The notes beneath the pieces are model-generated. The model was not told where the DNA came from, did no database searches, and saw nothing but the letters and a program-made list of their open reading frames with translations. From positions 1,139 to 65,138 of the forward strand of contig PHEE01000007.1 in assembly GCA_002842855.1 (NCBI GenBank): a stretch of DNA of 64,000 nt. The letters run 5' to 3'. The position numbers and the translations under genes were made by a program. Within the stretch, counting starts at the first letter, position 1. Every line of letters starts with the position of its first letter. Shown here piece after piece: positions 9,566-52,279 of this stretch. Source of the DNA: Alphaproteobacteria bacterium HGW-Alphaproteobacteria-4 (GTDB taxonomy: Bacteria; Pseudomonadota; Alphaproteobacteria; Rhodobacterales; Rhodobacteraceae).

Positions 9566-9621
9566 GCACCTGTGCCGCCGGGTCTTGCCGGCGCACTCCA
9601 AAACGCTCCGGGGAGGATGCG

Positions 9622-9969
9622 ATGCATTTGAAACGTTTCAGCGAAGCACAGCCATACGAGGCGCCCAACCATTTCGGCGTCGTCGGCTTGCGCTTGCAGG
9701 GGTTTGAGCCTGACGGGCCGAAAAACCAGTGGGTCGGGCTGTCGCAGTTTTTGCCGGGCGGCGGCGCGGGGCCTGACAGCACCCCCTTTGAAAAGGTCTA
9801 TGTGGTGCTTGAGGGCGAAATGACCGTGATCGTGGACGGCGTCGTAACCGTGCTTGGCCGCTACGACAGCTGCACGATTCCGCCCGGCGAAGTGCGCAAG
9901 ATCGAGAACCGCACTAACCACAGCTGCACCATGCTGGTGGTGATCCCCTACCCGCCGGAGAAGAAATGA
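9622..9969 (+). CDS. Cupin domain protein
   Basis: 115 aa; ATG behind GGGAGG. Small beta-barrel-type sequence, translationally coupled to the next gene. Confidence 0.7.
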   Translation: MHLKRFSEAQPYEAPNHFGVVGLRLQGFEPDGPKNQWVGLSQFLPGGGAGPDSTPFEKVYVVLEGEMTVIVDGVVTVLGRYDSCTIPPGEVRKIENRTNHSCTMLVVIPYPPEKK

Positions 9970-11704: not shown

Positions 11705-11762
11705 ACCGCCGCACCGGCAAAGCCGGGCGGTCACGGCCAACGTGCCATCAAGGGAGGATACC

Positions 11763-13034
11763 ATGAAACACCTGCATCCCAACCGCCGCCGTTTTCTGGC
11801 CGGAACCTCGGCCTTGCTTGCGGCCCCCGCCCTGCTGCGCGCCACCCGCGCCTATGCGCAGATGCCGAAACTGCGCGTGGGCCATGTCAGCCCGCGCACC
11901 GGCCCGCTGGCCGGTTTTGCCGAGGCCGACGACCATGTGTTGCAAGCGATTACCGAGCGTTTCGCTGGCGGCATCAGCAACAACGGCAAGACCTGGGCGG
12001 TCGAGATCATCTCGAAAGACAGCCAGTCGAACCCGAACCGCGCCGCCGAAGTTGCCGCCGACCTGATCTTGCGCGACGAGGTTGACATCATCGTGGCCGC
12101 CTCGACACCCGACACCGTGAACCCGGTCTCCGATCAGGCCGAAATCAACGAGGTACCCTGCATCACCACCGATTGCCCCTGGCAGCCCTATTTCTTTGGT
12201 CGCGGCGGCAACCCGGCGCAGGGGTTCGATTTCACCTACCACTTCTTCTGGGGGCTGGAGGATGTGATCGGCGCGTTCCTGGATATGTGGGGGCAGACCG
12301 GCGTGGCGAAGGTGGTGGGGGGCCTGTTCCCCAACGATGCCGATGGCAATGCCTGGGGCGACGCCGAGCTAGGCCTGCCCAAGCCCTTGGCGGCGGCGGG
12401 TTATGCGCTGACCGATCCGGGGCGCTACCAGCCCTTGTCGGACGACTTTTCCAACCAGATCGCCGCCTTCAAGGCGGCGGGTTGCGAGATCGTTACCGGC
12501 AACATGATCCCGCCCGATTTCGCGACCTTCTGGGCGCAGGCGGCACAACAGGGTTTCGCACCCAAGGTGGTGACCATCGGCAAGGCGCTGCTGTTCCCCT
12601 CGGTAATCGAAAGCCTCGGGGCGCGCGGCAACGGGCTGAGCTCCGAGGTCTGGTGGTCGCCTTCGCACCCCTTCGCCTCGTCATTGACCGGCGCCACCTC
12701 GAAAGCGCTGGCCGATGGTTACAGCGCCGCGACAGGTCGGCCCTGGACGCAGCCGATCGGCTTCAAGCACGCGCTGTTTGAGGTGGTGGCCGATGTGATC
12801 GGCCGCGCCGCCGACCTTGAGGATGCCGCCGCCATCGTCTCGGCTATTGCCGCCACCAACATGACCACCATCGTCGGCCCGGTGAACTGGGCGGTGGGGC
12901 CGGTGAAGAACGTCACCAAGACGCCGCTGGTAGCGGGGCAGTGGCAGCGTGAAGGCAACAGGTTCGACCTCAAGATCGTGGCCAATTCCGCGCAGCCTGA
13001 AATTCCGCTGACCGGCGCCATGCAACTTCTGTAA
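11763..13034 (+). CDS. ABC transporter substrate-binding protein (Liv/branched-chain amino-acid type) with Tat-like signal
   Basis: ATG 11763 behind GGGAGG. Signal NRRRFLAGTSALLAAPALLRATRAYA. Followed by two ATPase and two permease genes. Confidence 0.85.
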   Translation: MKHLHPNRRRFLAGTSALLAAPALLRATRAYAQMPKLRVGHVSPRTGPLAGFAEADDHVLQAITERFAGGISNNGKTWAVEIISKDSQSNPNRAAEVAADLILRDEVDIIVAASTPDTVNPVSDQAEINEVPCITTDCPWQPYFFGRGGNPAQGFDFTYHFFWGLEDVIGAFLDMWGQTGVAKVVGGLFPNDADGNAWGDAELGLPKPLAAAGYALTDPGRYQPLSDDFSNQIAAFKAAGCEIVTGNMIPPDFATFWAQAAQQGFAPKVVTIGKALLFPSVIESLGARGNGLSSEVWWSPSHPFASSLTGATSKALADGYSAATGRPWTQPIGFKHALFEVVADVIGRAADLEDAAAIVSAIAATNMTTIVGPVNWAVGPVKNVTKTPLVAGQWQREGNRFDLKIVANSAQPEIPLTGAMQLL

Positions 13035-34517: not shown

Positions 34518-34623
34518 GTCGTTCTCCGTTACTTGCCGCGCGTCTTGCGCGAAATGGTTGGCGGCGCGTGCTGCGCCTTCCCCCCGCTTTGTCCCGGCCC
34601 CTCCTCCTCGAAGGGCCGCGCGC

Positions 34624-46667: not shown

Positions 46668-49151
46668 ATGAGCGAGACCCCTTCCAGCCTGCCGTTGTCC
46701 GCCCGCGCCATGGCGGCGCGCCCCGCGCCCTATCTTGACGGGCTGAACCCGGCGCAGCGCGCGGCCGTAGAGGCATTGGATGGCCCGGTGTTGATGCTGG
46801 CAGGCGCCGGCACCGGCAAGACCCGCGCGCTGACCGCGCGGATCGCGCATCTGCTGGCGCAGGGGCGGGCGCGTCCGAACGAGGTGCTGGCGGTCACCTT
46901 CACCAACAAGGCGGCGCGCGAGATGAAAGAGCGGCTGGGCCGCCTGATGGGCGAAAGCGTTGAGGGGCTGCCGTGGCTCGGCACCTTTCATGCGATCTGC
47001 GTAAAGCTGTTGCGCCGCCACGCCGAATTGGTAGGGCTGAAATCGAACTTCACCATTCTGGATACCGATGACCAGATCCGGCTGCTCAAGCAACTGATTG
47101 TCGCTGAAAACATTGATGAAAAGCGCTGGCCCGCGCGGATGCTGGCGGGGCTGATCGACGGCTGGAAGAACCGCGCCCTGACGCCCGACAAGGTGAAGGG
47201 CGCCGAGGCCGCGACGTTCAACAACTACGGCGGCGAGCTTTACACCGCCTATCAGGCGCGGCTTCGGGCGCTCAATGCGGTCGATTTCGGCGATTTGCTG
47301 CTGCACATGGTCACGATCTTTCAGACCCACCCCGATGTGCTGGCGCAGTATCAGCGCTGGTTTCGCTACATTCTGGTGGACGAGTATCAAGATACCAACG
47401 TGGCGCAGTATCTGTGGCTGCGCCTGCTGGCGCAGGGCCACCGCAACATTTGCTGCGTCGGCGATGATGACCAGTCGATCTACGGTTGGCGCGGCGCAGA
47501 GGTGGGCAACATCCTGCGTTTCGAGGCGGATTTCCCCGGCGCGCAGGTGATCCGGCTGGAGCAGAACTACCGCTCGACCGCGCATATTCTTGCCGCCGCC
47601 TCGGGCCTTATCGCGGCCAACGCAGGGCGGCTGGGCAAGACCCTCTGGACCGCCGCCGAGGGTGGCGCGAAGGTTCGCCTCATTGGCCATTGGGACGGCG
47701 AAGAAGAGGCGCGCTGGATCGGCGACGAGGTTGAGGCGGTGGCGCGGGGGGCGCGCGGGATTGACCCGATCGGCCTGAACGGGCAGGCGATTCTGGTGCG
47801 CGCCAGTCACCAGATGCGCGCCTTCGAGGACCGTTTCCTGACCATCGGCCTGCCTTACCGGGTGATCGGTGGCCCGCGCTTTTACGAGCGGCAGGAGATT
47901 CGCGACGCGATGGCCTATTTCCGCCTCGCGGTCAGCCCCGATGACGATCTGGCATTCGAGCGGGTGGTGAACGTGCCCAAGCGCGGCCTTGGCGACAAGG
48001 CGGTGCAGACGATTCAGGCGACCGCGCGCGAAGATGGCACCGGGCTTTTGGAGGCCGCCCGCTATGCGGTGGCCACGGGGCGGCTTTCAGGCCGAGGTGC
48101 CGGGCAGTTGCGCGGCTTTGTCGAAGGGGTGGACCGCTGGCACAAGGCGGTGCAGGCCGGCGAAAGCCATGTCGCACTGGCTGAAACCATTCTTGACGAA
48201 AGCGGCTACACCGGAATGTGGCAGGCCGACAAATCGCCCGAGGCGCCGGGGCGGCTGGAAAACCTGAAAGAGCTGGTGAAGGCGCTTGAACAGTTCGAGA
48301 ACCTGCAAGGCTTTCTGGAACATGTCTCGCTGATCATGGACAACGCCAGCGAAGACGCCGCCGAAAAGGTCAGCATCATGACCCTGCACGCGGCCAAGGG
48401 GCTCGAATTTCCCGCCGTGTTCCTGCCGGGGTGGGAGGATGGCCTTTTCCCCAGCCAGCGCAGCATGGACGAAGGCGGGCTGAAAGCGCTGGAGGAGGAG
48501 CGGCGGCTGGCCTACGTCGGCATCACCCGCGCCGAGTGGCTTTGCACCATTTCGTTTGCCGGCAACCGCAGGGTTTACGGCCAGTGGCAATCGGCGCTGC
48601 CCTCGCGCTTCATCGACGAGCTGCCGGCCGCGCATGTCGAGGTGCTGACCCCACCCGGCTTGTACGGTGGCGGCTTCGGAGCCGCGGCGCGGCCGACGGC
48701 TTTCGGCATCGAAGAGCGCGCTGCGCGCGCCGATGTCTATGCCTCGCCCGGCTGGAAGCGGATGCAGGAACGCGCCGGGTCGCGCCCGCTCGCGAAGCCG
48801 CGCGAGGCGCGCCATGTGGTGATCGACCTTGACGCAGTCAGCAATTTCGAGCCGGGCGAGCGGGTTTTCCATCAGAAATTCGGCTATGGCCTGGTGCGGC
48901 TGATCGAGGGTGACAAGCTGACGGTGGTGTTTGAAAAGGCGGGCGAAAAGAATGCGCGGCAGCGCCGCGAACAGTCGGGTCAACCGCGCGGCTTCAGCCG
49001 CGGTTCCCCACGGCGCATTCACGATGAACAGGCCCGAGCCGACCATGCCATGCCCTGCGCGGGCGGGGGGAAAGCGAACCTCGTGGCGCAGGGCTTCGGG
49101 GTGGTTGGCGGCAAGCGCTGCGAGCATCGGCGCGTGCGGCGCGGCAGCTAG
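46668..49151 (+). CDS. uvrD: DNA helicase II (UvrD/PcrA family); the native C-terminal tail appears replaced after residue ...FEKAGEKN (about 48953)
   Basis: Walker A AGAGTGKT, DEYQDTN and helicase motifs are colinear to ...FHQKFGYGLVRLIEGDKLTVVFEKAGEKN. The remaining 64 codons (to 49151) are antisense to rlmJ and Arg-rich junk. Confidence 0.85.
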   Translation: MSETPSSLPLSARAMAARPAPYLDGLNPAQRAAVEALDGPVLMLAGAGTGKTRALTARIAHLLAQGRARPNEVLAVTFTNKAAREMKERLGRLMGESVEGLPWLGTFHAICVKLLRRHAELVGLKSNFTILDTDDQIRLLKQLIVAENIDEKRWPARMLAGLIDGWKNRALTPDKVKGAEAATFNNYGGELYTAYQARLRALNAVDFGDLLLHMVTIFQTHPDVLAQYQRWFRYILVDEYQDTNVAQYLWLRLLAQGHRNICCVGDDDQSIYGWRGAEVGNILRFEADFPGAQVIRLEQNYRSTAHILAAASGLIAANAGRLGKTLWTAAEGGAKVRLIGHWDGEEEARWIGDEVEAVARGARGIDPIGLNGQAILVRASHQMRAFEDRFLTIGLPYRVIGGPRFYERQEIRDAMAYFRLAVSPDDDLAFERVVNVPKRGLGDKAVQTIQATAREDGTGLLEAARYAVATGRLSGRGAGQLRGFVEGVDRWHKAVQAGESHVALAETILDESGYTGMWQADKSPEAPGRLENLKELVKALEQFENLQGFLEHVSLIMDNASEDAAEKVSIMTLHAAKGLEFPAVFLPGWEDGLFPSQRSMDEGGLKALEEERRLAYVGITRAEWLCTISFAGNRRVYGQWQSALPSRFIDELPAAHVEVLTPPGLYGGGFGAAARPTAFGIEERAARADVYASPGWKRMQERAGSRPLAKPREARHVVIDLDAVSNFEPGERVFHQKFGYGLVRLIEGDKLTVVFEKAGEKNARQRREQSGQPRGFSRGSPRRIHDEQARADHAMPCAGGGKANLVAQGFGVVGGKRCEHRRVRRGS

Positions 49152-49739
49152 GATCGGATACCAGAGCGCGATCACCCCGACATTCCATTTGCGCGCCACC
49201 TTCGCGATGAACGACGGCAGCGATTCGTAATCCGCCTTTACCTCGTAGCTCGGGTCGATCAGCAACAGGCCCCGGCGCGGCGTGGGCGGGGTGATGGAAA
49301 GCGCCATCTGCAAGCCGTCGATCTGCTGAAAGATGCCGCCGTGTGGCGCCATCGTTGTTTGCAGCGCCGCGAATTCGCGCGGGTGCAGTTCGGCCAGCCG
49401 GATCGAATCGACCGGGCGCAGCAGCGCGGCCGCGATCAGCGGCGAGCCGGGGTAGGTGGCTGTGCCATGCGCCCTGCGGGTGGCAGCAAGGGCGCGGGCG
49501 TAGGGGTGGGTGGGCGCGAACCAGCCTAGCCGCTCGATCCGGGCGATGCCCTCGGCGGCCTCGCCGGTTTTCAGCGCCTCGGGGGCATCGAGCGCATAAA
49601 GCCCGCGCCCCGCGTGCGTTTCGATGTAGCTGAGCGGCTTTGGCTTGGCGGTGAGGTAGTCGAGCATGCTTGCCAGCAGCGCGTGCTTGTGCACGTCGGC
49701 CAGATTTCCCGCGTGATAGAGGTGTTGATAACTGAGCAT
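48957..49739 (-). pseudogene. rlmJ: 23S rRNA (adenine2030-N6)-methyltransferase RlmJ lacking its native 3' end and stop codon
   Basis: ATG 49739. MLSYQHLYHAGNLADVHKH hallmark, LLLIDPSYE, ...GSGLFIVNAPWG...LTRLFAALP. Beyond about 48957 the frame runs on without a stop to 48087, antisense to uvrD. Confidence 0.7.
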
Positions 49740-49800
49740 TTCGGCACTTTCCGGGTTTGCCCCGGCATGCCCCGTGGCGCGGTCCCGCGCAACCCCTGCA

Positions 49801-49876
49801 AATGAAAGCGGCGACGCCCAGGGAGGAGGAGGGGCGCCGCCGCTTGTTCCTCGGCCCCAGGGAGGAGGAGGGGGCC
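49801..49876 (-). ncRNA. CcsR-type sRNA unit 4 (distal): two hairpins with CCUCCUCCC loops plus U-rich tail
   Basis: Hairpins at 49853-49876 and 49808-49843 (12-bp stem). Minus-strand loops contain CCUCCUCCC. Followed by UUUCAUUU, so it resembles an intrinsic terminator. Confidence 0.7.
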
Positions 49877-49892
49877 TCGGGATAAGGTGCGA

Positions 49893-49959
49893 TGCCAGCC
49901 CGGGAGGAGGATGGGCGGCACCGCTGAAACGATCGGCCCGGGGAGGAGGTGGGCCTATC
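49893..49959 (-). ncRNA. CcsR-type sRNA unit 3
   Basis: Hairpins at 49931-49959 (core 49935-49955) and 49893-49920. Both loops contain CCUCCUCCC. Confidence 0.65.
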
Positions 49960-50000
49960 GCTTGTCGTTCAGGCCTTGCGGCCCGCAACCGGTTTGAAGT

Positions 50001-50068
50001 GCGGCGGCTCCGGGGAGGAGAATGGAGCCGCCGCCTTCATCACGAGACCCCGAGGGAGGAGGAGGGGG
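50001..50068 (-). ncRNA. CcsR-type sRNA unit 2
   Basis: Hairpins at 50048-50068 (short stem) and 50001-50034 (11-bp stem). Loops are CCUCCUCCC and UCUCCUCCC. Confidence 0.65.
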
Positions 50069-50107
50069 CCTTCGTTTGCCTTCGGGCCTTTCGGCCCCGG
50101 TGTTCGT

Positions 50108-50176
50108 GCGGCACCCCCAGGGAGGAGGAGGGGGGTGCCGCCCTTTTTTCCCATGGCCCAGGGAGGAGGACGGGCC
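50108..50176 (-). ncRNA. CcsR-type sRNA unit 1 (proximal to the DUF1127 gene)
   Basis: Hairpins at 50155-50176 and 50108-50141 (11-bp stem). Both loops are CCUCCUCCC. It begins 13 nt after the ccaF1-like stop. Confidence 0.7.
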
Positions 50177-50188
50177 GGGAAGGGAAAC

Positions 50189-50410
50189 TTATTTGCCGCG
50201 CTTGCCGTAAGCGGCTTCGATCGCCACGCGGGTGATCATCGAGCGGTGGATGCCGAGATCATCCAGCTCACGCGTCGAGAGCACGTTGAGCTCGCGCAGC
50301 GTCTGGCGGTAAACCTTGCGGCGCTGGCGCGCTTCGTTAAGGTTGGAGAATATTGCAGAGATGCGTCCGGCAATGCCGAGGTCGCCGCTCAGGATGCTTG
50401 TGAATGCCAT
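50189..50410 (-). CDS. ccaF1: DUF1127 small protein (CcaF1-like)
   Basis: 73 aa; ...RRKVYRQTLRELNVLSTRELDDLGIHRSMITRVAIEAAYGK, the DUF1127 signature. Sits directly upstream of the hairpin array, as in R. sphaeroides RSP_6037. Confidence 0.85.
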   Translation of the reverse strand: MAFTSILSGDLGIAGRISAIFSNLNEARQRRKVYRQTLRELNVLSTRELDDLGIHRSMITRVAIEAAYGKRGK

Positions 50411-50465
50411 GTCTCAGGTTCCGTTCGATGTTCGAAAGGCGATCTCGTATTCGCCGTTGGGGCTA

Positions 50466-50493
50466 ACATGGGCAAAATGCTGCAACTGCACAA
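50466..50493 (-). promoter_or_regulatory. Candidate RpoH-type promoter of the ccaF1-CcsR locus (TTGTGC-N15-CCCATGT on the minus strand)
   Basis: The CCCATGT element resembles the sigma32-type -10 CCCCATNT. About 55 nt upstream of the ATG. Motif match only. Confidence 0.3.
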
Positions 50494-50660
50494 TAGGGCG
50501 CGGAATCAATGCCGCCATGCGGAAACTGCATAACGGATGCTGACCTATTTTAAGCTGACGTAGCGGCATTTGCCTAAATCTTACGCGGGTTTGGCATGAT
50601 CTCTTGCGCTCGCGCACAATCGCGGCAGAGTGCGCGGTGTCAACAGCGGCGGAGTGTCAC

Positions 50661-51716: not shown

Positions 51717-52020
51717 GCGGGAAAACGCGCCCCGGCACGGGAAATTGCGGGACCGGGCACAATCGGCGTGGTCAAAACGAATCACTTCGGGGTGATTCGA
51801 ACGTCGGCGCGCCAATTGTTCCCTTAATGTTTTCCTTAATATTCAGATTGCCGCGCTTTTGGCAGAAAACATCGCGCGCCGCATGGGAATGGGGTGCTGC
51901 GCATCTGTTTACTATATTTAGTGGTGGTAACAACATTGACCGCTACCCTTGCTAAGCCAAGGCGTGAATTCGGCACAATACCTTGTTTTTGAGAGGGCTT
52001 CGACACCACATCTGCGGTAT

Positions 52021-52070
52021 TCACCCATAAATTCCTGTTGCTTCCCGTAAATTCCCACGATATCCCTTGT
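52021..52070. promoter_or_regulatory. Five 10-bp-phased direct repeats (CACCCA, TTCCTG, TTCCCG, TTCCCA, ATCCCT), a MraZ-box-like array in the dcw leader/promoter region
   Basis: The CCC/CCT cores lie at 52024, 52034, 52044, 52054 and 52064. The reverse complement reads TGGGT/NGGGA/CAGGA units at helical-turn spacing. Confidence 0.45.
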
Positions 52071-52074
52071 TCAT

Positions 52075-52279
52075 CGAAGAAGGCGGGCTCAACGGGACGC
52101 AAGATCCCAAAGGCGACTAGCAGGTTTCATACAGGCACCCGACTTTGTTCGAACCAAGAGATCCGGCGCGCGAGCGAGCAGACATCCCCCCAGGTGGCGC
52201 GCGTAGTCGGACATACCCAGCGATGGGACGAGGGCGGCGGATCGGGCAGTGGCAGCGGCCCGACCGCCGTTTCTCTTTG
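52075..52279 (+). ncRNA. UpsM-like leader sRNA of the dcw operon (5' end approximate)
   Basis: An intrinsic terminator ends at 52279, 33 nt before mraZ. The phased repeats/promoter region lie about 200 nt upstream. The architecture matches the R. sphaeroides mraZ leader sRNA. The TSS was not determinable from sequence. Confidence 0.35.
52233..52279 (+). terminator. Intrinsic terminator inside the mraZ 5' leader
   Basis: Bulged stem GGCGG(CGGA)TCGGGC-loop-GCCCGACCGCC followed by GTTTCTCTTTG. Confidence 0.65.

Follow-up and report, generated by a model that had tools for sequence, protein, structure and literature searches.

The window analysed here, 64,000 nt of contig PHEE01000007.1 from Alphaproteobacteria bacterium HGW-Alphaproteobacteria-4, carries on its minus strand a small gene for a DUF1127 protein, followed by an array of GC-rich hairpins with CCUCCUCCC loops and then by rlmJ on the same strand. 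A conserved promoter-like block and a divergent mrp/apbC gene lie upstream. This strand and order fit the layout of the CIN1/CcsR RNAs, in which small RNAs (sRNAs) are co-transcribed in the 3' untranslated region (3' UTR) of a DUF1127 gene, and the locus represents a further, so far unannotated example of the ccaF1-CcsR (CIN1 cuckoo) stress-response module known from Rhodobacter sphaeroides.

The DUF1127 gene (50410..50189, minus strand, stop codon included) encodes a protein of 73 aa, for which an earlier note, made from the bare sequence, had already proposed membership in this family. Pfam PF06568 matches residues 27-59 of the 73 at E = 6.1e-12 (45.5 bits, cut-off 23.3), and the length is within the ~50-75 aa typical of these small proteins. 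Over 61 residues the protein is 61% identical and 82% similar to the 71-aa CcaF1 of Cereibacter johrii, and as judged from its sequence it is the CcaF1 orthologue. An identical 73-aa protein is encoded on 22 metagenome contigs, and the start of the open reading frame (ORF), ATGGC, is kept across 15 genera in an alignment of upstream regions. The stop codon is TAA, and the core of the first hairpin begins 12 nt beyond it. Adjacency to a DUF1127 gene (OG1) is what defines CIN1, which in Rhodobacteraceae typically consists of clusters of two-hairpin RNAs (PMC4615179); here the ORF ends just those 12 nt before the first hairpin.

The 9-mer CCTCCTCCC is found seven times in the window, always on the minus strand and within 349 nt (49821-50169), while 100 dinucleotide shuffles of the window gave an expectation of 0.45 copies and none of them reached seven. 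A helix search around each motif delimited eight GC-rich hairpins with uninterrupted stems of 5-14 bp; seven of the loops have the exact CCUCCUCCC and the eighth reads UCUCCUCCC (50021-50013), which is the composition given in the earlier note. In the minimum free energy (MFE) structures from RNAfold, a folding check that the note had proposed, two hairpins and no more form in every unit, and the motif lies entirely unpaired within loops of 10-13 nt. Folding energies of the units run from -39.5 to -44.7 kcal/mol, with z-scores between -3.1 and -5.2, and the complete 406-nt stretch folds with z = -7.4.

All four units are on the minus strand. Unit 1 (50187..50103; -42.5 kcal/mol, z = -3.1) comprises hairpins 50176-50155 and 50141-50108, both with CCUCCUCCC loops. 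Unit 2 (50079..49996; z = -5.0) has hairpin 50071-50045 with CCUCCUCCC and hairpin 50034-50001 with UCUCCUCCC, and ends in ACUUC (50000-49996). Unit 3 (49965..49886; z = -5.2) is made up of hairpins 49955-49935, whose extended stem covers 49963-49927, and 49924-49889; unit 4 (49885..49798; z = -4.6) of hairpins 49876-49853 and 49845-49806. With the stem boundaries used here, the core units are 67-71 nt long and separated by gaps of 36, 45, and 12 nt. The earlier note's array of four units stands as described, with small differences in measurement: it had loops of 11-12 nt, a first hairpin 13 nt past the ORF, units of 67-69 nt, and gaps of 41, 41, and 16 nt, the gap values differing only by the choice of where the stems are cut. 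Behind the last stem (14 bp) comes UUUCAUUU (49805-49798), as had been noticed before, and a U-rich tail behind the final hairpin is kept in four of the related loci introduced below (L001-L004). The second hairpin of unit 4 probably doubles as the intrinsic terminator. A terminator scan gave no call on it, because its 12-nt loop exceeds the 3-8 nt that the scan allows. No separate promoter-like site was detected inside the array.

Two of the spacers contain a small GNRA-tetraloop hairpin each, which the earlier note had overlooked: GGGCC-GAAA-GGCCC, in spacer 1, at 50097-50084 and, in spacer 2, CGGGCC-GCAA-GGCCUG at 49985-49970 (both minus strand). The two Phaeovulum orthologues of the locus retain the stems of both with different loop sequences, all five pairs of the first being kept in each, and a Cereibacter spacer holds a GAAGC-GCAA-GCUUC hairpin. 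These spacer hairpins might, for example, help to position RNase E or block exonucleases.

Proline-rich coding sequence, or a generic intergenic repeat of the repetitive extragenic palindrome (REP) kind, would account for the array with no regulatory RNA function at all. The motif CCUCCUCCC would translate to Pro-Pro-Pro, and mechanical ORFs cover the region on both strands. However, the four mechanical ORFs that overlap the array have no Pfam match, and no gene was called in the 449 nt separating ccaF1 from rlmJ in four metagenome contigs (L056-L059) that are 98.3-99.7% identical to the window and encode the same CcaF1 protein. A long minus-strand ORF that crosses part of the array is rlmJ extended upstream (Pfam RlmJ, E = 3.7e-43). 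By comparison with the N-terminus of E. coli RlmJ, its true start is taken to be the ATG at 49739 (MLSYQH...), so that the Pro-rich frame upstream of it is spurious; gene calls in L056-L059 put the start at the equivalent site. The protein-coding reading was rejected on these grounds, as it had been in the earlier note. The motif is also found nowhere else in the window and, in related loci, only 3' of ccaF1, and the covariation described below preserves RNA pairing rather than codons, so that a repeat or coding sequence of this kind is hardly credible.

Rfam at gathering thresholds returned just two tRNAs from the whole window. In permissive E-value mode, its CcsR1 model (RF02791, in full "conserved CCUCCUCCC motif stress-induced RNA 1") matched three units end to end: unit 4 (51.4 bits, E = 2e-11), unit 1 (47.3 bits, E = 3.1e-10), and unit 2 (46.0 bits, E = 7.8e-10). 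Unit 3 was matched when scanned by itself (33.0 bits, E = 5.5e-7); its absence from the initial scans with Rfam and with the purpose-built model described next is probably an artefact of overlap removal, its match overlapping that of unit 4 by 2-3 nt. The three-hairpin ar14 model (RF02344) did not reach its cut-off of 58.8 bits (32.7-40.1 bits), and its alignments either span two of the units or omit a hairpin. A covariance model, R1, was built from an alignment of 16 units (window, two Phaeovulum loci, and Cereibacter), for which RNAalifold gave a two-hairpin consensus with compensatory changes at 10 of 15 pairs. Its scores were 82 bits for unit 4, 79.4 for unit 2, 79.3 for unit 1, and 56.5 for unit 3 scanned by itself.

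Related loci were collected through relatives of the 73-aa protein, with one genome per species. The resulting 55 are all from Paracoccaceae/Rhodobacteraceae, the closest protein being from Phaeovulum (77% identity); Cereibacter johrii is among them, as is a Rhodobacter strain. In 49 of the 55, an exact CCTCCTCCC occurs one or more times, with up to 14 copies per locus, and every copy is 3' of the gene and on its strand, with none on the opposite strand. A lack of conservation of the hairpins in syntenic relatives, which the earlier note had named as the outcome that would speak against it, is not what was found. Outside its training set, R1 recovered 147 units in 52 loci, again all on the gene strand and downstream of the gene, and the number of units varies from 1 to 7 among relatives. 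Upstream, 45 of the 55 loci have a divergent mrp/apbC as their neighbour, and because Cereibacter is one of them, the window locus is positionally orthologous to the characterised one. Downstream, rlmJ is the same-strand neighbour in 13 of the 55, Cereibacter not being among them.

Loop sequences do not change, whereas stem sequences vary from copy to copy and from species to species. That stems vary but stay complementary around constant loops had been suggested from the window's copies alone, and an alignment of the 147 recovered units (A2) bears it out, with double-sided (compensatory) changes at all 15 modelled pairs. The covariation score of A2 was 0.648, compared with 0.206 when shuffled (none of 500 as high) and at most 0.13 in controls with the 3' partners slid by 1-3 columns. 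The array was also aligned over its full length with the two Phaeovulum orthologues by MAFFT, independently of the model; pairing is seen in 93.7% of the 316 cells, compared with 35-50% in slid controls.

These patterns also bear on whether the hairpins act only in cis, as 3'-UTR stabilisers or as a stack of terminators or insulators for the ccaF1 mRNA, possibly forming a barrier before rlmJ, with no trans-acting sRNAs released. The stems are highly stable and GC-rich, the last one has a U-tract, and rlmJ does follow on the same strand in those 13 loci. A purely structural role, however, would not hold a 9-nt loop invariant while the stems vary freely, nor does it sit well with a unit number ranging from 1 to 7, and processing of the homologous units of R. 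sphaeroides gives discrete sRNAs that associate with Hfq and have a defined target (PMC8034643, PMC4615179). A purely cis-acting array is accordingly considered very improbable.

Cuckoo RNAs were defined in a survey of 78 genomes, the source organism lying outside them, as 2-4 adjacent hairpins with CCUCCUCCC (or a listed variant) in loops of 9-27 nt; hairpins measure 24-50 nt with helices no shorter than 6 bp and interruptions no longer than 6 nt, and linkers within an RNA do not exceed 10 nt (PMC4615179). These rules of the survey's thermodynamic matcher were applied by hand to the RNAfold output. The eight hairpins, with their seven exact motifs and one UCUCCUCCC, fall within the loop limits; in the extended MFE stems they are 32-43 nt long with 8-15 bp, and the linkers within units are 0-3 nt. 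With 36, 45, and 12 nt between them, the units are treated as separate HP2 RNAs, the shortest of these distances being borderline. The window has the adjacent CCUCCUCCC-loop hairpins, clustered HP2 RNAs, OG1 gene, and Rhodobacteraceae host of cuckoo CIN1 (Reinkensmeier & Giegerich 2015, PMC4615179). It differs in its other flank, which is rlmJ, whereas a benzoate-transporter gene flanks 27 of the Rhodobacteraceae cuckoo RNAs (PMC4615179).

The closest characterised counterpart is ccaF1 (RSP_6037)-CcsR1-4 of R. sphaeroides (RF02791, formerly RSs0680a-d), for which a DUF1127 gene, four two-hairpin 3'-UTR sRNAs, an RpoH-type promoter, and a terminator at the end have been published (PMC8034643, PMC4615179). 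Both loci have a 71-73-aa DUF1127 gene, four same-strand two-hairpin CCUCCUCCC units, GUUUCC/ACUUC linkers, and a divergent mrp/apbC, and the upstream RpoH-type promoter and the precursor of ~660 nt predicted for the window correspond to those of R. sphaeroides (precursor 680 nt). The proposal in the earlier note that the window matches RSP_6037 and the CcsR1-4 cuckoo family is upheld by the CcsR1 scores, the 61% protein identity, the mrp synteny, and the covariation. There are also differences from Cereibacter: CcaF1 is only 61% identical, the stem sequences are unrelated, and the window units score 33-51 bits against a threshold of 65.3. The last CcsR hairpin appears to be the terminator in the window, while in Cereibacter unit 4 is followed by an additional terminator hairpin that lacks the motif; units 3 and 4 lie 12 nt apart in the window and ~45 nt apart in Cereibacter; and the rlmJ found downstream in the window is missing from that position in Cereibacter.

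Two other families invite comparison. NfeR1/alpha-r14 (RF02344) of Sinorhizobium meliloti is a CIN1 family member sharing the anti-Shine-Dalgarno (anti-SD) loop motif, the link to DUF1127, and a TGCA-N6-GCAT box at about -72 to -60, but it has three hairpins and lies upstream of its DUF1127 gene, in contrast to the two-hairpin 3'-UTR units of the window. Its promoter is of the sigma-70 type, activated by LsrB and repressed by NtrC, whereas the core promoter in the window is RpoH-like. The Actinobacteria 6C RNA (RF01066) likewise has two hairpins with C-rich loops and gives weak matches (20-29 bits). These are far under the cut-off of 47, and with a different phylum, loop motif, and context it is a look-alike only.

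A conserved promoter/operator block upstream of the ORF lies beyond the region covered by the earlier note. Within it, a predicted RpoH (sigma-32)-type promoter (50494..50464, minus strand) consists of ATTGTGCA at -37 to -30, GCAGCA, and CCCATGTT at -14 to -7. The blocks that are invariant in a 15-genus alignment are ATTGTGCA (50494-50487), GCAGCA (50483-50478), CAT-TT (50470-50465), and AAC (50458-50456), and the promoter block is kept in 51 of the 55 related loci. With TTG set at -36 to -34, there is an A at -12 and a T at -9, positions that matter for RpoHI/RpoHII of R. sphaeroides (PMC3441632). RSP_6037 is not listed in the Dufour 2012 supplements. The window's ATTGTG-N16-CCCATGT also resembles the RpoH1 consensus of S. 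meliloti, CTTGAA-N16-CCTATAT (PMC8844928). The transcription start can be placed provisionally at ~50457 (A), on the invariant AAC, which would imply a 47-nt leader and a precursor of ~660 nt; that of R. sphaeroides is 680 nt (PMC8034643).

Candidate processing sites are present as well. GUUUCC, directly after the stop codon (50188-50183, minus strand), is a candidate RNase E site for the 5' end of unit 1 and is kept in related loci L001, L002, and L007, while ACUUC is directly 3' of unit 2. RNase E sites mapped in R. sphaeroides are GUUUCC for the CcsR1 5' end and ACUUC for CcsR3 and CcsR4 (PMC8034643).

For transcription, processing, stress induction, CcaF1 binding, and targets, the scheme proposed here is carried over from experiments in R. 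sphaeroides and S. meliloti. Transcription would begin near 50457 at an RpoH-type, stress-responsive promoter, run through the 73-aa DUF1127 gene and the four two-hairpin modules, and stop at the last hairpin and its U-tract, giving the ~660-nt precursor. RNase E would cut in single-stranded AU-containing linkers (GUUUCC past the stop codon, ACUUC past unit 2), releasing sRNAs of ~75-120 nt. Their exposed CCUCCUCCC loops would mimic the anti-SD sequence of 16S rRNA, pair with G-rich ribosome-binding regions, and repress the mRNAs concerned, while the co-encoded CcaF1 would bind the RNAs and modulate their maturation and stability. In short, the locus probably yields RNase E-processed, stress-induced anti-SD sRNAs. 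In R. sphaeroides, CcsR1-4 are cut by RNase E from the ccaF1 mRNA's 3' UTR, this mRNA having an RpoHI/RpoHII promoter, and they interact with the mRNA of the regulator FlhR and raise resistance to oxidative stress (PMC8034643). They have also been reported to interact with Hfq (PMC8307010).

CcaF1 binds the CcsR RNAs directly and destabilises them (PMC8034643), which gives some grounds for regarding the array chiefly as a protein-binding platform or sponge, its C-rich loops titrating CcaF1, Hfq, or another RNA-binding protein, with mRNA pairing secondary. Eight identical loops per transcript, as they are counted for this alternative, and the linkage of protein and RNA array in most of the 55 loci would both suit such a role. 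Targets paired through the anti-SD loops have been demonstrated, however, namely the flhR mRNA for R. sphaeroides (PMC8034643) and, for S. meliloti, the mRNAs of ntrB and of ABC transporters (PMC10746234), and the sponge and base-pairing roles are in any case mutually compatible. That titration is the main function seems very improbable.

The preferred reading, in which the window holds a ccaF1-CcsR locus that functions like the one in R. sphaeroides, is given a probability of about 90%. The architecture, the homology, the synteny, the structural covariation, and the promoter match are all direct observations on the window and its relatives. Several points weigh on the other side. All four units failed the CcsR1 threshold test, scoring below the RF02791 gathering score of 65.3 bits, so that the covariance-model check suggested in the earlier note succeeded in that CcsR1 scores every unit (E from 2e-11 to 5.5e-7) and not in that none reaches gathering level. 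Standard pairs make up 96.2% of cells in A2, against 38-64% in the slid controls, a percentage that is inflated because A2 was fitted to the model structure. In the three-species MAFFT alignment only 4 pairs are compensatory, since the sequences are 89% identical. Units 3 and 4, just 12 nt apart, might stay joined as a four-hairpin RNA. Finally, the U-tract UUUCAUUU is interrupted and rlmJ starts 59 nt past it on the same strand (window 49739-49805), making read-through possible, and it is conceivable that rlmJ is reached from the stress promoter in this way.

The threshold was examined in Cereibacter johrii, chosen as a control because it is the type organism's closest relative among the fetched loci. 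There, CcsR1 alone passes the RF02791 cut-off (106 bits). Since CcsR2-4 of C. johrii fail too, the threshold marks CcsR1 of the Cereibacter/Rhodobacter clade rather than the CcsR family. With four of four units missed here and three of four in the control, CcsR arrays in Paracoccaceae/Rhodobacteraceae are systematically under-annotated, and the earlier note's description of a recognisable but normally unannotated system, not a brand-new one, is supported; none of the four units is picked up at the Rfam gathering thresholds. The broader model R1, with its 147 units in 52 loci, is of practical value for annotation. The system has already been characterised and is widespread in the family, so a specialist would find little surprise in its presence; the value of the locus is as evidence of under-calling by Rfam and in a conserved LsrB-like candidate operator, which would point to a redox-responsive regulator in Rhodobacterales.

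This candidate operator is the palindromic box ATGCAGTTTCCGCAT (TGCA-N6-GCAT; 50531..50517, minus strand), a possible LysR-type (LsrB/VtlR-like) recognition site and the sole exact ATGCA-N5-YGCAT match in the window. Relative to the predicted start, TGCAGTTTCCGCAT spans -73 to -60. The box is at the equivalent place in 43 of the 55 related loci, with essentially no further copies in those 6-kb loci, and its distance to ATTGTGCA is fixed at 37-38 nt, although the intervening 12 nt vary freely. Downstream of it, the invariant GTGCA-N3-GCAGCA block (50478-50494, minus strand) is conserved across Paracoccaceae/Rhodobacteraceae; its GCAGCA (-26 to -21) shows no difference among the 50 distinct loci that can be placed in register and is more conserved than the -10 region. 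Elsewhere in the window, a search for further copies of the operator or of the -35/spacer block gave only mismatched, chance-level matches. LysR-type regulators usually bind a strong recognition site near -65 and an activation site overlapping the -35/spacer region, and the layout of box and invariant block appears to resemble this arrangement.

Promoters of LsrB/VtlR-regulated sRNAs have a TGCA-N6-GCAT (T-N11-A) box near -65 (PMC10746234, PMC7486931), as is the case here, and the box departs from the GCAT-N3-TG-N3-T consensus by a single mismatch (GG or AG for TG). In S. meliloti, the LysR-type LsrB binds the same motif at -72 to -60 of the NfeR1 promoter, where the motif is needed for NfeR1 transcription (PMC10746234). 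LsrB has been reported in Rhizobiales only (PMC11975290), and a crude regex motif screen of the 64-kb window found no LysR-type regulator. It is proposed tentatively, at somewhat less than even odds, that the Rhodobacterales ccaF1-CcsR operon is under a LysR-type regulator, acting through TGCA-N6-GCAT and GTGCA-N3-GCAGCA (-33 to -21), besides RpoH factors. If so, the cuckoo module of operator, sRNA, and DUF1127 gene would be older than the split of Rhizobiales and Rhodobacterales, and the latter, from which LsrB is reported absent, would possess an unrecognised LsrB-like redox regulator. A real operator of this kind would connect what has been published on cuckoo RNAs in Rhodobacter with the corresponding work on Sinorhizobium, and the conserved box may be the only part of the locus that goes beyond what is described for Rhodobacterales.

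A 7-mer search for candidate targets, confined to the window, found two genes whose start codons are preceded, at a distance of 4 nt, by perfect 7-nt loop complements. One encodes a LivK-type periplasmic binding protein (11763-13034) and the other a small cupin (9622-9969); each has a GGGAGGA Shine-Dalgarno sequence, at 11752-11765 and 9611-9624, respectively (both plus strand). NfeR1 is known to target mRNAs for ABC-transporter binding proteins (PMC10746234). Little weight is placed on either match, since both are generic strong Shine-Dalgarno sites and do not discriminate.

A few further features of the window were noted. A lone hairpin at 34594-34617 (plus strand), GGCCC-CUCCUCCUCGAA-GGGCC, has a cuckoo-like loop and a second GC hairpin behind it; it is a weak match to R1 (17.3 bits, E = 0.12) and lies within overlapping mechanical ORFs. 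Between mrp/apbC and mraZ-rsmH, where the dcw cluster starts, is a non-coding stretch of ~530 nt (51717-52248, plus strand) that is seemingly less GC-rich than the DNA around it; an UpsM-like RNA upstream of mraZ was looked for there, with no Rfam match at E <= 1.

Compared with the four near-identical contigs, the window lacks 149 bp at 48952|48953 (compare L056:4459-4607), which could be a genuine deletion or an assembly error. Because of this gap, the rlmJ ORF extends to 48087 (550 instead of 263 aa) and the uvrD ORF to 49151. The missing segment consists of the rlmJ stop, a convergent spacer, and the last ~55 nt and stop of uvrD, and the spacer contains a GC hairpin, CCGGGGGC-CA-GCCCCCGG.

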